Assembly: GCF_048403405.1 (NCBI RefSeq)
Contig: NZ_CP183129.1
Length of the DNA stretch: 64,000 nt
Reading direction: 5' to 3' (one strand)
From: Escherichia coli
GTDB taxonomy: Bacteria > Pseudomonadota > Gammaproteobacteria > Enterobacterales > Enterobacteriaceae
Each line of letters starts with the position of its first letter. The stretch's first letter is position 1. Under the pieces are notes generated by a model. The model saw only the letters and a list, made by a program, of their open reading frames with translations. It was not told the origin of the DNA and did no database searches. The position numbers and the translations under genes were made by a program. Positions 1,767-6,608 of the stretch are shown here, piece by piece.

Positions 1767-3128
1767 TTACTTCTCCAGTTGGCGTAATATCTTATTAACT
1801 TTATCAAAAGTTTCCTGATATTCCGCTTCTTCCTGGCTATCGGCGACAATTCCACCGCCCGCAGAGCAGTATATTTGTCCGTTAATGGCAGTCAGAGTGC
1901 GGATAGTAATGCTGGTGTCCATGTTGCCGCAAAAGCTCAAATAGCCAATGCTGCCGCACCAGGCATTACGTCGCTGCGGTTCCAGTTCGTCGATAATTTC
2001 CATAGCCCGTACTTTCGGAGCCCCGGTTATTGAGCCACCAGGAAAAGCTGCGCGCAGCAGATCGCTGGCGTGTAACTGTTCTGGTAGTTGCGCCGTTATG
2101 GTGCTGACCAGATGATGCACGGCAGGGAAGGGTTCCACCACGAACAGCTCTGGTACTTTTACCGAACCTGCTACGGCAACACGACCGATATCATTACGCA
2201 TTAAATCGACAATCATCAGATTTTCGGCACGATCTTTCGCTGAGTTCGCCAGTTTTTCTGCTTGTTTGCTATCTTCCTGAGGATCGGGCAGGCGTGGTAG
2301 CGTGCCTTTAATCGGGCGGGTCTGGATTTCACTATTATCACAAAGGATAAACCGCTCTGGCGAAAGGCTTAAAATCGCACCCTGTTCAAGACGTAAAAAA
2401 GCGCTAAACGGCGCGCGGTTGGCCTGATTAAGCTGAAGGAATGCCTGCCATTCATCGCCAGAATAGGTCGCATGAAAACGCTGGGCGAGATTCACCTGAT
2501 AGCAATCACCGCTGTGCAGATATTCCTGTACCTGGCGAAATTTTTCGCCGTACTGCTCGCGGGTCATATTGGATTGCCAGTCGGAAGTGAGCGTGAAATC
2601 TTCCTGCGGGGAGAATTGCTGGCTTTCCAGCCATGCCCGACGGGCATTGACATCATTATGACTCAGCAAAGAAACTGTATGACGCTGGTGGTCAACAACC
2701 AGCGCCCAGTCGTAGATACCCACTGCCATATCCGGCAGAACGATATCTTGCTGCGCAATTTCTGGCAGTGACTCAAAACGGCGGCCCAGATCGTAGCCAA
2801 ACAACCCCAGTGCGCCGCCCTGAAATGGCAAATCTTCGTTATGCGTTGGGCGAATGTCTGCGCGATCCAGCACCTGCTGGAGCACCTGTAGCGGGTCATC
2901 AGTGGTCGTTGTGCGTTTTTCGCTTTCACTAACAACGGTTTCTTTACCGAAAGTGGTTAAAGTGCAAATCGGCTCGGCGACCACAATATCAAAGCGGCTA
3001 TATGGATGATCGGCATAGCCGGAGTGTAAAAGCATCGCCCACGGCAGGTGGCTTAAGCGGGAGAAATAAAATTCAGCGGCGTCCTGACGCCAGGGTAAAG
3101 TAATCACAGCGGGAGATAACGTCTTCAT
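1767..3128 (-). CDS. pabB: aminodeoxychorismate synthase component I
   Basis: 453-aa ORF, chorismate-binding enzyme family (…SLSPERF…, …PGGSITGAPK…); 3 bp downstream-adjacent to nudL. Confidence 0.93.
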   Translation of the reverse strand: MKTLSPAVITLPWRQDAAEFYFSRLSHLPWAMLLHSGYADHPYSRFDIVVAEPICTLTTFGKETVVSESEKRTTTTDDPLQVLQQVLDRADIRPTHNEDLPFQGGALGLFGYDLGRRFESLPEIAQQDIVLPDMAVGIYDWALVVDHQRHTVSLLSHNDVNARRAWLESQQFSPQEDFTLTSDWQSNMTREQYGEKFRQVQEYLHSGDCYQVNLAQRFHATYSGDEWQAFLQLNQANRAPFSAFLRLEQGAILSLSPERFILCDNSEIQTRPIKGTLPRLPDPQEDSKQAEKLANSAKDRAENLMIVDLMRNDIGRVAVAGSVKVPELFVVEPFPAVHHLVSTITAQLPEQLHASDLLRAAFPGGSITGAPKVRAMEIIDELEPQRRNAWCGSIGYLSFCGNMDTSITIRTLTAINGQIYCSAGGGIVADSQEEAEYQETFDKVNKILRQLEK

Positions 3129-3200: not shown

Positions 3201-3381
3201 AATGTTTGCAGGTTTACCTTCACTCACCCATGAACAGCAGCAAAAAGCCGTCGAGCGGATCCAGGAACTGATGGCACAAGGGATGAGCAGCGGCCAGGCA
3301 ATCGCGCTGGTGGCAGAAGAGCTGCGTGCCAACCATTCCGGCGAGCGAATCGTGGCGCGTTTTGAGGATGAAGACGAGTAA
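3201..3381 (+). CDS. yoaH: small UPF0181-family protein (59 aa)
   Basis: ATG at 3201 preceded by AGGAG; reads [59 protein letters not shown]; below ORF-track size cutoff. Confidence 0.75.
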
Positions 3382-3435
3382 CACACTAATCCGTATCGCT
3401 TTCGTTATAGAAGCCGATGATTATTTGATTGTGAG

Positions 3436-3472
3436 AAAAAGGACGCTTTTCATATGTGATTAAAAGCGTCCT
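3436..3472 (-). terminator. intrinsic terminator hairpin between convergent yoaH and yoaC
   Basis: Inverted repeat AGGACGCTTTT / AAAAGCGTCCT with 11-nt loop; A-run on plus side gives a U-tract for the minus-strand yoaC transcript. Confidence 0.6.
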
Positions 3473-3500
3473 GACCCATTTATGCTGATGTAAATTTTAC

Positions 3501-3800
3501 TCAGACCAGTGCTTTTAGTTCTTCCTGCATATATGTTGAAAAGTATTCAGGATTTTTAATCACAATGCGTTCACCAGACTCCATTTTTTTTGCCCATCCA
3601 ACCATTTTTTCCGTGAACCCCGGGTTCCAGCCTTCCTGGTCAGCTCGCGCCGTAATATCGGCGGCGCTCGCGGGTACTCCCAGTTCTTTTAAATATTTAA
3701 AGATTCCCTTCGCCGTGCTTTCATTCATCGAACTTGGTGTTGGTGCTGATACATCCATGGCACCAATGAAATCCAGGGCTTTATCTATTACAGCAGGCAT
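3501..3800 (-). CDS. yoaC: DUF1889 family protein
   Basis: Track ORF 3501..3860; internal ATG at 3800 (MPAVIDKALDF…) has an AAGGA ribosome-binding site, the 3860 start has none; gives 99 aa. Confidence 0.8.
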   Translation of the reverse strand: MPAVIDKALDFIGAMDVSAPTPSSMNESTAKGIFKYLKELGVPASAADITARADQEGWNPGFTEKMVGWAKKMESGERIVIKNPEYFSTYMQEELKALV

Positions 3801-4221
3801 ATTCTTATCCTTAAAATTAACCATGTTATCGATAAGGCTATATATGACCTTAATTTGCATCTAATATCAAAGGGATTATAACGATATGGCACGAGTTAAC
3901 CTGTTGACATTCAGGTGTTTTAAAGGTAGCAGTTCATGGTGTGTTATCCAGTAAGAGGGAGAAAATTGACGGTCAGTTCTCACGCTATAACCAAATTGTT
4001 CAGCTAAGAAAGAAAACCAGAGATGCTAATCGAAGGGCGAACACAACGGCATGGTTATGTTTATTTATATAGTTAGCTTTATAGCTAAAATTGAAATTAT
4101 AAAAATAAATAATGAATTAGCAGGAGCATCAACAGTAATATCTTAATCTCTGGTCGATTTATGTAAAACCGACCAGTATTATCGATAAATTATCGTCTGA
4201 CTTATTTTGCTTCGATAAAGC

Positions 4222-4566
4222 TTACACCGCAGCCACAATCTTAATTTCAACTTTATACTTCGGGTTCATCAAACCCGCTTGTACCGTGCAGCGCACCGGC
4301 GCATGACCCGCGACAACCCAGGCATCCCACGCTTTATTCATCGCCGCGAAGTCGTTTTTATCGGCCAGGAAAATGGTGGCATCCAGAATGCTCGATTTAT
4401 TGCTGCCCTGTTTTTCCAGCACGGCGTCAATCTGCGCCAGCGTGTTGGCGGTTTGCTCAAAGGCATCGGCGTCGAGGTTTTCCGGTACACCAGTGTAGTA
4501 GAGCGTGTTGTTGTGGATTACTACATCAGACCAGCGGGCTTCAGCATCGATACGAACGATAGTCAT
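4222..4566 (-). CDS. yoaB: RidA/YjgF-family protein
   Basis: Track ORF 4222..4614; start chosen at MTIVRIDAEARW… giving 114 aa. Confidence 0.8.
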   Translation of the reverse strand: MTIVRIDAEARWSDVVIHNNTLYYTGVPENLDADAFEQTANTLAQIDAVLEKQGSNKSSILDATIFLADKNDFAAMNKAWDAWVVAGHAPVRCTVQAGLMNPKYKVEIKIVAAV

Positions 4567-4697
4567 CATTTTGTCCTCATTATCCTTCCATTTTCGTGCT
4601 GCAAAGACTGCCACAATGTGAGGTCGCCGTCACCACTTCAACTGGCGAAAGCGCCCTCATCCTGACATAATCCCTGTTCAAATCAACAGGGGGTAGT

Positions 4698-6608
4698 GTG
4701 ACGGACGATTTTGCACCAGACGGTCAGTTGGCGAAAGCGATACCGGGCTTTAAGCCGCGAGAACCACAGCGACAGATGGCGGTAGCCGTCACCCAGGCGA
4801 TAGAAAAAGGCCAGCCGCTGGTGGTGGAAGCCGGAACCGGTACGGGCAAAACCTACGCTTACCTGGCCCCTGCGCTGCGGGCGAAAAAGAAAGTCATTAT
4901 CTCGACCGGTTCAAAAGCGTTGCAGGATCAGCTCTACAGCCGCGATTTGCCAACAGTCTCAAAGGCATTGAAATATACGGGCAACGTGGCGCTGCTGAAA
5001 GGGCGCTCAAACTACCTCTGCCTCGAACGTCTCGAACAACAGGCGCTAGCGGGCGGCGATCTGCCGGTACAAATCTTAAGCGATGTGATCCTGCTGCGCT
5101 CCTGGTCTAATCAAACAGTCGATGGTGATATCAGCACCTGCGTCAGCGTGGCGGAAGATTCACAGGCGTGGCCGCTGGTCACCAGCACCAACGACAACTG
5201 TCTTGGCAGCGACTGCCCGATGTATAAAGATTGCTTTGTGGTCAAAGCACGCAAAAAAACGATGGACGCCGATGTGGTGGTGGTAAACCATCATCTCTTT
5301 CTGGCGGATATGGTGGTGAAAGAGAGTGGATTTGGCGAACTGATCCCGGAAGCTGACGTGATGATCTTCGACGAAGCCCACCAACTGCCCGACATTGCCA
5401 GCCAGTATTTTGGTCAGTCACTCTCCAGTCGACAACTGCTCGACCTGGCAAAAGACATCACCATCGCCTATCGCACCGAATTAAAAGATACTCAGCAGTT
5501 ACAAAAGTGCGCCGACCGCCTTGCCCAGAGCGCGCAGGATTTTCGTCTGCAACTCGGTGAGCCTGGTTATCGTGGCAACCTGCGCGAACTGTTAGCTAAT
5601 CCGCAAATTCAGCGAGCATTTTTACTGCTCGATGACACCCTGGAACTTTGTTATGACGTGGCGAAACTGTCGCTGGGGCGCTCCGCCTTGCTGGATGCGG
5701 CATTTGAGCGCGCCACGTTGTATCGTACGCGGCTGAAACGGCTAAAAGAGATCAATCAGCCAGGCTACAGCTACTGGTACGAATGCACTTCGCGCCATTT
5801 TACTCTGGCACTCACGCCGCTCAGCGTGGCGGATAAATTTAAAGAGTTAATGGCGCAAAAGCCAGGTAGCTGGATTTTTACCTCGGCAACGCTGTCGGTG
5901 AACGACGATCTGCATCATTTCACCTCGCGGCTTGGCATCGAACAGGCGGAGTCGTTGCTGTTACCCAGCCCCTTTGATTACAGCCGCCAGGCGTTACTCT
6001 GTGTGCCGCGCAACCTGCCGCAAACTAATCAACCGGGTTCCGCACGGCAACTGGCGGCAATGCTGCGACCGATCATCGAAGCTAACAACGGTCGTTGTTT
6101 TATGCTTTGTACCTCGCACGCCATGATGCGCGATCTGGCTGAGCAGTTCCGCGCTACCATGACGCTTCCCGTTTTGTTGCAGGGGGAAACCAGCAAAGGG
6201 CAACTGTTGCAGCAATTTGTCAGCGCCGGTAACGCGCTTCTTGTGGCAACCAGCAGCTTCTGGGAAGGGGTGGATGTGCGTGGCGATACATTGTCGCTGG
6301 TGATTATCGACAAGTTGCCGTTTACCTCACCGGATGATCCACTATTAAAAGCGCGCATGGAAGATTGTCGTTTGCGCGGAGGCGACCCGTTCGATGAAGT
6401 ACAGCTGCCGGATGCGGTCATTACTCTCAAGCAGGGAGTAGGGCGATTGATTCGCGACGCCGACGATCGAGGGGTTTTGGTGATTTGCGATAATCGGCTG
6501 GTGATGCGCCCTTACGGCGCGACGTTTCTCGCCAGTCTGCCGCCAGCGCCGCGCACCCGTGACATTGCCCGTGCGGTTCGTTTCCTTGCGATACCATCCT
6601 CCAGGTAA
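4698..6608 (+). CDS. yoaA: ATP-dependent DNA helicase, DinG family
   Basis: 636-aa ORF, GTG start; Walker A AGTGTGKT and DEAH box (MIFDEAHQL). Confidence 0.93.
   Translation: MTDDFAPDGQLAKAIPGFKPREPQRQMAVAVTQAIEKGQPLVVEAGTGTGKTYAYLAPALRAKKKVIISTGSKALQDQLYSRDLPTVSKALKYTGNVALLKGRSNYLCLERLEQQALAGGDLPVQILSDVILLRSWSNQTVDGDISTCVSVAEDSQAWPLVTSTNDNCLGSDCPMYKDCFVVKARKKTMDADVVVVNHHLFLADMVVKESGFGELIPEADVMIFDEAHQLPDIASQYFGQSLSSRQLLDLAKDITIAYRTELKDTQQLQKCADRLAQSAQDFRLQLGEPGYRGNLRELLANPQIQRAFLLLDDTLELCYDVAKLSLGRSALLDAAFERATLYRTRLKRLKEINQPGYSYWYECTSRHFTLALTPLSVADKFKELMAQKPGSWIFTSATLSVNDDLHHFTSRLGIEQAESLLLPSPFDYSRQALLCVPRNLPQTNQPGSARQLAAMLRPIIEANNGRCFMLCTSHAMMRDLAEQFRATMTLPVLLQGETSKGQLLQQFVSAGNALLVATSSFWEGVDVRGDTLSLVIIDKLPFTSPDDPLLKARMEDCRLRGGDPFDEVQLPDAVITLKQGVGRLIRDADDRGVLVICDNRLVMRPYGATFLASLPPAPRTRDIARAVRFLAIPSSR

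Follow-up and report, generated by a model that had tools for sequence, protein, structure and literature searches.

The 421-bp gap between yoaB and yoaC in the window (the whole stretch of 64,000 nucleotides of Escherichia coli DNA that was analysed) is very probably an ordinary composite intergenic region, which separates two genes transcribed separately from the same strand and holds no independent RNA gene. Four parts can be distinguished. The first is a yoaB 3′ UTR of about 76 nt, in which a stem-loop (4176-4150) marks the stable end of a monocistronic mRNA. The second, the middle ~200 bp, is an AT-rich and weakly conserved spacer. The third, the last ~130 bp, is the yoaC control region, composed of the P1 start at 3916, an unstructured 116-nt leader, a ribosome-binding block and the ATG at 3800. 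The fourth part would be a cassette, inserted here as yoaC together with its proximal leader. These parts are already visible in published genome-wide start-site, 3′-end and ChIP datasets. The gap has little significance beyond housekeeping, and nothing in it was surprising enough to raise a new question. Three points are of mild interest: yoaC behaves as a cassette that landed at different places according to the enterobacterial genus, its ribosome-binding block varies less than its protein, and the LysR-type regulator YhaJ is found far upstream of yoaC at a place with no recognisable box.

The window is oriented opposite to the chromosome of E. coli K-12 MG1655. Positions 3300-4800 were aligned to K-12 without indels, and the NC_000913.3 coordinate is 1897933 minus the window coordinate. 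The 1.3-kb neighbourhood was found in 5,425 of 5,426 complete E. coli genomes. The yoaB-yoaC gap is single-copy and was found in 5,411 of the 5,426, mostly with 95-99% identity; none of the listed genome records annotates a feature there. A sequence-only reading of this DNA had described a 360-bp AT-rich non-coding gap at 3861-4221. The gap is real, AT-rich and non-coding, but its left boundary was misplaced. The longest open reading frame of yoaC starts from an ATG at 3860 (119 aa), and we rejected this start: the codon is replaced by ACG or AGG in other Escherichia species, and both the RefSeq and the K-12 annotations start yoaC from the ATG at 3800 (99 aa). Furthermore, 19 loci from four genera show almost no variation in the 22 nt, AAGGA among them, that precede this ATG. 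Because yoaC starts at 3800, the true gap is 421 bp, 3801-4221, and our analysis corrects the earlier gene boundary. The GC content is 0.333 in 3801-4221 and 0.343 in 3861-4221, as compared with 0.499 in the whole window. The gap had also been called long, and by local standards this description holds: in a 50-kb stretch of the K-12 annotation with 54 gaps it ranks third by length, and the two longer ones are yobD-mntP and yobF-yebO. The genes and other features of the region are collected in Table 1.

Table 1. Genes and sequence features in and around the yoaB-yoaC gap (window coordinates).
Feature	Position	Strand	Basis
pabB	1767-3128	-	ORF list and annotation
yoaH	3202-3381	+	ORF list and annotation
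yoaC CDS (DUF1889 protein, 99 aa; downstream gene)	3501-3800	-	Annotation; 19 homologous loci all align from this start
Ribosome-binding block GGTTAATTTTAAGGATAAGAAT	3801-3822	-	Nearly invariant across Escherichia, Buttiauxella, Citrobacter and Lelliottia
yoaC 5′ UTR, 116 nt from P1	3801-3916	-	Fold tests
Perfect TATAAT with no recognisable -35, candidate second yoaC promoter	3875-3880	-	Conservation
Imperfect 18-bp palindrome ACCTGAATGTCAACAGGT, +1 to +18 of the yoaC transcript, contains TTGACA	3899-3916		Sequence
Bicyclomycin-sensitive "Rho termination region", reported coordinate	3914	-	Adams 2021, Supplementary file 2
yoaC promoter P1: extended -10 TGCTACCTT (3931 to 3923), start site 3916	3916-3931	-	Kim 2012 and sequence
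AT-rich, poorly conserved spacer	3950-4145		Composition and comparison
T-N11-A motif named nearest to the YhaJ peak: TTATAGATAAAATTGA (EHEC/UPEC), TTATAGCTAAAATTGA here	4079-4094	+	SI tables of the ChIP authors
YhaJ (LysR-type regulator) ChIP-seq peak centre, assigned to yoaC	~4142-4165		Connolly 2019/2020
yoaB 3′ UTR, ~76 nt, stop codon to mapped mRNA 3′ end	4146-4221	-	Term-seq and SMRT-Cappable-seq
Conserved RNA hairpin closing the yoaB mRNA	4150-4176	-	Fold, comparison and mapped 3′ ends
Weak antisense promoter, -10 TATTAT (4177-4182), start site 4189, towards yoaA through yoaB	4177-4189	+	Kim 2012; -10 read from the sequence
Perfect 13-bp palindrome CGATAAATTATCG in the yoaB 3′ UTR	4183-4195		Read from the sequence
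yoaB CDS (RidA/RutC-family protein, 114 aa; upstream gene)	4222-4566	-	ORF list; annotation of K-12 and of an identical E. coli genome
yoaA	4698-6608	+	ORF list and annotation

The inverted repeat CTGGTCG…CGACCAG had been noticed at 4150-4176, and its arms lie precisely there (4150-4156 and 4170-4176). The stem core is 7 bp (CUGGUCG/CGACCAG) with five G-C pairs, and it can be extended to 11 bp. The fold of the yoaB 3′ UTR, calculated for the minus-strand RNA, was -21.8 kcal/mol against a shuffle mean of -9.8 (z = -4.46), and none of 200 shuffled sequences folded as well. Among seven Escherichia sequences, 98% of the stem cells pair and two pairs show compensatory double changes; at this number of sequences the covariation statistics are modest, and 16-19 of 500 shuffles equalled them. 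One Escherichia lineage keeps one of the pairs as U-G only, which pairs in minus-strand RNA and not in duplex DNA.

The end of the yoaB mRNA has been observed at this hairpin by two methods. In each of three growth conditions, Term-seq mapped a K-12 3′ end at 1893787 (+), which corresponds to window 4146. Its read-count scores were 6,545, 1,585 and 1,225, and the sole reason for its class, "orphan", is a distance of more than 50 nt from the stop codon. SMRT-Cappable-seq reported a full-length capped K-12 transcript, 1893335-1893785, which covers b1809 only and ends at window 4148. The two 3′ ends are 4 and 2 nt past the stem, respectively. The start site of this transcript agrees between the SMRT-Cappable-seq data (v3 1893335) and the data of Kim 2012 (v2 1891360, 448 reads), and corresponds to window ~4597-4598. 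Because the mapped 3′ ends lie 2-4 nt past the stem, the hairpin closes the yoaB 3′ UTR. It forms the end of a yoaB mRNA that is monocistronic and ~450 nt long, and is not the terminator of a small RNA. A U-tract is absent after the stem, where the sequence is AGAGATTAAGATATT, and a scan of 3300-4800 for terminator-like sites with a T-run gave none. Because there is no U-tract, the hairpin would be inefficient as a terminator by itself.

In enterobacteria, several regulatory sRNAs are derived from mRNA 3′ UTRs, for example CpxQ and SdhX. The yoaB mRNA resembles the parents of such sRNAs in possessing a conserved, structured 3′ end. If its 3′ UTR were released or accumulated as a regulatory sRNA, the hairpin would be the 3′ structure of that sRNA, and the compensatory changes in the stem, the conservation of the sequence block just upstream of the stem and the strong, reproducible 3′ end (the three Term-seq scores given above) would be accounted for. 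We consider this reading very unlikely. Neither Kim 2012 nor SMRT-Cappable-seq reported a start or processing site on the minus strand within the 3′ UTR, the capped full-length reads comprise the entire yoaB mRNA, the U-tail carried by Hfq-dependent sRNAs is lacking and no Rfam family matches. In other words, yoaB differs from the CpxQ and SdhX type in that it gives no sign of a short species, a U-tail, an internal start or a cleavage site.

The sequence-only reading had also suggested an unannotated small RNA in the gap. An Rfam search of 3300-4800 with a permissive E-value gave chance-level matches only; the best (E = 0.32; 27 bits, where the gathering score is 50) lies outside the gap. Moreover, the tables of Kim 2012, SMRT-Cappable-seq and Term-seq hold no pair of a start and a 3′ end of its own within the gap. 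Transcripts of two kinds were found in the gap, the yoaB 3′ end and the yoaC 5′ UTR; the earlier reading had named these two as telling against its proposal when found alone. The sole addition is an antisense start of 12 reads. Since there is no Rfam match and no internal start and end pair, and the hairpin is the end of the yoaB mRNA, the suggestion is not upheld. It should be mentioned that the published transcript maps cover a few laboratory conditions (LB, M63 and M9), and that transcripts made only upon induction, for example by hydroquinone or DNT via YhaJ, would be missed by them. The antisense start was reported at v2 1891768 (-) and assigned to yoaA with a 509-nt UTR (Kim 2012). It is weak and spurious, the sort of low-level initiation expected of AT-rich DNA.

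An independent, unannotated sRNA gene within the AT-rich spacer was the second proposal of the earlier reading, next to the yoaC promoter. The gap is long by local standards, promoter-like hexamers are present at 4167-4140 (-) and 4064-4091 (+), and the weak antisense start lies at 4189. The two promoter-like matches compare with 3.2 expected from shuffled sequences, however, and there are no terminator-like sites. Term-seq reports no 3′ end in the spacer, no Rfam family matches and no listed genome has anything annotated there. The spacer is also the least conserved part of the gap (identity 0.49-0.64), and one Escherichia lineage has lost most of it. Therefore, such a gene is extremely improbable.

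The statement that no convincing ORF exists on either strand was confirmed: the small ORFs in the gap (22-43 aa) are not conserved. Those at 3876-3983 (-) and 3941-4072 (+) are interrupted by stops in K-12 or CFT073, and the one at 3886-3954 (+) loses its ATG in other Escherichia. The ORF at 4051-4146 (+) is intact, but its changes are almost only non-synonymous.

The 13-bp palindrome CGATAAATTATCG in the yoaB 3′ UTR is lost in other Escherichia species, and the surrounding block is conserved. Fur boxes are described by a 7-1-7 model. As a Fur box, the palindrome was rejected: its half-site spacing is 2 bp too short for this model and it is not conserved. Its half-site TTATCGAT is shared with some YhaJ-bound motifs.

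Between the hairpin and the yoaC promoter lies the spacer, whose GC content is 0.31-0.37 and whose identity to other Escherichia species is 0.49-0.64, the lowest in the gap. Most of it is missing in the Escherichia lineage L004. The gap of Escherichia sp. MOD1-EC7003 is only 271 bp; the hairpin and the proximal ~130 bp are kept and most of the spacer is missing. The sense RNA of 3917-4149 is untranslated, with no conserved ORF, and contains 47 C and 31 G residues. RNA polymerase probably continues past the hairpin into this spacer, whose RNA is untranslated and richer in C than in G. Rho would then terminate yoaB transcription within the spacer, and 3′ exonucleases would trim the RNA back to the stem. 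We infer this order, Rho first and trimming second, from the properties of the spacer RNA and from published Rho data. After Rho termination, exonucleases usually shorten the RNA (Adams 2021), and the same study reported a Rho region at K-12 1894019 (+), window 3914, with p = 2.4e-6 and a Rho score of 3.15. Because this coordinate and the yoaC start at 3916 are only 2 nt apart, the bicyclomycin effect could instead reflect derepression of the yoaC promoter and not read-through from yoaB. The ~200-bp spacer may serve to insulate yoaC from yoaB read-through.

A single start site of yoaC was reported, at v2 1892041 (+) with 21 reads, which corresponds to window 3916 (Kim 2012). RNA polymerase ChIP-exo signal was also observed at yoaC (Gao 2018, Fig. 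3B). The -10 element of this promoter, P1, is TACCTT at -12 to -7 with TG ahead of it at -15/-14, and five of six Escherichia lineages have the block CTGCTACCTTTAAAA around it unchanged. No -35 element close to TTGACA was found for P1 on the same strand. The best candidate is TGGATA, which matches at four of six positions with a 16-bp spacer, and a simple promoter scan did not call it. P1 is a weak promoter of the extended -10 type. The TTGACA hexamer had been placed at about 3914. It is actually at 3904-3909 on the plus strand, antisense to yoaC, and occupies +7 to +12 of the yoaC transcript, inside the leader. One TTGACA in 421 bp, counting both strands, is close to chance (~0.2 expected), and it was not called in the promoter scan; it is a red herring and no part of the yoaC promoter. 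Consequently, the earlier proposal of a yoaC promoter with regulatory sites is upheld in substance: the start at 3916 is in the gap and YeiE and YhaJ occupy the region (see below), but TTGACA plays no part in this promoter.

The imperfect palindrome ACCTGAATGTCAACAGGT overlaps the 5′ end of the yoaC transcript. Its core ATGTCAA(C/T)AG is conserved and the best fold of the leader does not use it. Its role could be that of an operator or of a weak 5′-terminal stem. Nearer to the gene, the TATAAT at 3880-3875 is in the best-conserved block of the gap (identity 0.98-1.00), and the similarity across genera starts just past it. A yoaC start at ~3868, which was initially predicted from this element, was rejected in favor of the published start at 3916. 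We keep the TATAAT as a candidate for a second, activator-dependent yoaC promoter.

The yoaC leader itself is unstructured. A single-sequence fold compared with shuffles gave z = -0.19, and the consensus fold of 12 sequences from 4 genera was -1.14 kcal/mol with no compensatory pairs. A structured regulatory leader (riboswitch, thermometer or attenuator) was rejected, there being no conserved structure with covariation in the yoaC 5′ UTR. The ribosome-binding block of yoaC is more conserved than the YoaC protein.

Two transcription factors occupy the region upstream of yoaC in vivo. YeiE binds upstream of the RNA polymerase site at yoaC in ChIP-exo, and yoaC was given as an example of upstream YeiE binding, a mode that is more often activating (Gao 2018). 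YhaJ ChIP-seq peaks were found at yoaC in both EHEC and UPEC; in EHEC the peak-shape scores were 10.4 and 21.1, with P down to 1.7e-99, and yoaC was counted among the known YhaJ-regulated genes (Connolly 2019). In the peak tables of Connolly 2020, yoaC appears five times. The CFT073 peak centres are 2045445 and 2045463, where yoaB ends at 2045383 (Connolly 2019/2020); the window coordinates in Table 1 are our own conversion, and by the CFT073 gene coordinates the centres lie at 4142-4160. The spacer also bears occupancy by YhaJ and YeiE, and the assignment of either factor to a particular site is tentative. The YhaJ peak is centred on the hairpin, ~240 bp upstream of the yoaC start at 3916, which is unusually far for a LysR-type activator. 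The T-N11-A motif at 4079-4094 is inside the stretch deleted in Escherichia sp. MOD1-EC7003; only one of its half-sites is good, and 65-66 bp separate it from the peak centre. The YhaJ core TCAA-N5-TTGA was not found in the gap with one mismatch or fewer. With two mismatches it was found in the gap only at 3867-3879 and 3911-3923, outside the ChIP peak, and the scan of the whole window gave 37 matches against 33 expected, that is, chance.

From the peak centres at ~4142-4165 in two strains and the motif of the ChIP authors 65 bp from the peak centre, it might be argued that the inverted repeat at 4150-4176 works mainly as DNA, bound by YhaJ or another regulator, and not as an RNA hairpin. This is unlikely. 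The arms vary by compensatory substitutions, so that the sequence is not fixed, and the pairing of one lineage through a U-G wobble only is meaningless in duplex DNA. The 13-nt spacing of the arms does not fit TCAA-N5-TTGA, and no core with two mismatches or fewer is nearby. The mRNA ends exactly at the foot of the stem. The roles as RNA hairpin and DNA site are not mutually exclusive.

A promoter-like minus-strand site, TTTACA-16-TAAGAT (4167-4140), coincides with the YhaJ peak. It could be supposed that yoaC is expressed mainly from an inducible distal promoter of this kind near the hairpin, through a ~330-nt leader with read-through controlled by Rho. The Rho-sensitive region downstream and the excess of C over G in the spacer RNA would suit such an arrangement. 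We regard it as distinctly unlikely, given that the start-site sets of Kim 2012 and SMRT-Cappable-seq have no start near 4133, that other Escherichia species do not conserve its -10 and -35 elements and that L004 lacks the intervening spacer and keeps the proximal promoter. A further idea, which we hold to be unlikely, is that the yoaB hairpin region has a double use: as RNA it would fix the 3′ end, and as DNA it would be the landing site of YhaJ, which would act from ~240 bp away or on a distal Rho-gated promoter with the ~330-nt leader. If this were true, an acquired single-gene cassette would have been wired into a quinone/aromatic-stress regulon via the terminator of the neighbouring gene.

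Among the homologous loci compared, yoaC adjoins yoaB only in Escherichia, where the gene and its proximal leader separate yoaB from yoaH. The locus tags of yoaA, yoaB, yoaH and pabB are consecutive in Klebsiella pneumoniae, and the yoaC homologue of this species is ~1,000 genes away. As read from translations, the Citrobacter yoaC is between diol-dehydratase-reactivase-like and leuC-like genes, and the Buttiauxella yoaC adjoins fis-dusB. Because other genera carry yoaC elsewhere, the gene and its proximal leader constitute a single-gene cassette, which in Escherichia occupies this site. In the Escherichia lineage, the cassette would have entered between yoaB and yoaH, and the gap would be long and low in GC because of this insertion. 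A search of a plasmid collection with the YoaC protein matched only mislabelled chromosomes or very large replicons and gave no evidence of plasmid carriage. Deletion of yoaC causes boric-acid sensitivity.

The yoaC upstream region can be compared with the YhaJ-regulon promoters of yqjF, ybiJ, yhaK and yhhW. As in these, occupancy by YhaJ in vivo is seen in several strains, and the core promoter elements are weak or lack a -35. In contrast, the yoaC peak is ~240 bp upstream of the start, no core with one mismatch or fewer is present and only one half-site is good. At the other end of the gap, the yoaB 3′ end shares with a canonical intrinsic terminator a G+C-rich stem-loop directly before the RNA 3′ end, and differs from it in that no T-run follows the stem (AGAGATTAAGATATT) and the terminator scan is empty. 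It also resembles the processed ends of Rho-terminated mRNAs that are stabilised by a stem-loop (discussed in Adams 2021, which refers to Dar & Sorek 2018 and Wang 2019). The yoaB stem is 2-4 nt before the 3′ end with no U-tract, the downstream tract is untranslated with more C than G, and the distance to a bicyclomycin-sensitive region is at most a few hundred nt. The yoaB end, where we infer the same order of events, differs in nothing of kind from these Rho-dependent ends.

The yoaC gene encodes 99 amino acids from the ATG at window position 3800, a start on which annotation and conservation agree. A 119-amino-acid yoaC open reading frame had been proposed in the sequence-only reading, and this frame is too long: comparison of the sequences showed that other Escherichia species do not share the ATG at its start (3860) and have either ACG or AGG at that position. 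The block that precedes the yoaC start, GGTTAATTTTAAGGATAAGAAT, is near-invariant in four genera. Across the same four genera, the identity of the YoaC protein is only 68-76% and the gene context is unrelated. As judged from these sequences, the conservation of the block is greater than a Shine-Dalgarno function would need. Structure was sought in this block and none was found.

Features around yoaH, yoaC and yoaB (v2, older K-12 numbering used by Kim 2012)
Feature	Window position	Strand	K-12 position
yoaH start site (Kim 2012)	~2684	+	1893273 (v2)
Term-seq 3' end (published)	3435		1894498 (+)
Inverted repeat AGGACGCTTTT...AAAAGCGTCCT	3440-3472		
Term-seq 3' end (published)	3476		1894457 (-)
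Block preceding yoaC start	3801-3822	-	
Extra part of 119-aa yoaC frame	3801-3860	-	
Extra part of 130-aa yoaB frame	4567-4614	-	
yoaB start site (published)	~4597	-	

In Buttiauxella, Citrobacter and Lelliottia (loci L009-L022), the neighborhoods of the yoaC homologues are unrelated: the Buttiauxella homologue adjoins fis-dusB and that of Citrobacter is flanked by dehydratase-type genes. The roughly 1.1 kb that precede yoaC in Buttiauxella noackiae contain no open reading frame of at least 90 amino acids.

Within Escherichia, the spacers on both sides of yoaC vary in length. The yoaB-yoaC gap of Escherichia sp. MOD1-EC7003 (locus L004, 2230-2500) is only 271 bp; it does not possess the central AT-rich spacer and retains the proximal ~130 bp and the hairpin, the arms of which are doubly compensated. 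Between yoaC and yoaH, the window has a spacer of 119 bp, against 548 bp for Escherichia sp. E1V33 and for E. whittamii (L005 and L006, 2801-3348) and about 300 bp for two further lineages (L004, 2801-3106; L008, 2801-3101). Therefore, these four loci probably carry an insertion there.

The longest yoaB frame (130 amino acids, from GTG at 4614) over-extends the gene; annotation and the published start site support the 114-amino-acid form from 4566. The yoaH start site of Kim 2012 (27 reads, 518-nt leader) would initiate antisense within pabB.

The convergent genes yoaC and yoaH are separated by a stretch that contains an inverted repeat. A simple terminator scan did not pick up this repeat, probably because its loop is 11 nt. 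Published Term-seq 3' ends are present there on both strands, and the repeat looks like a bidirectional terminator.
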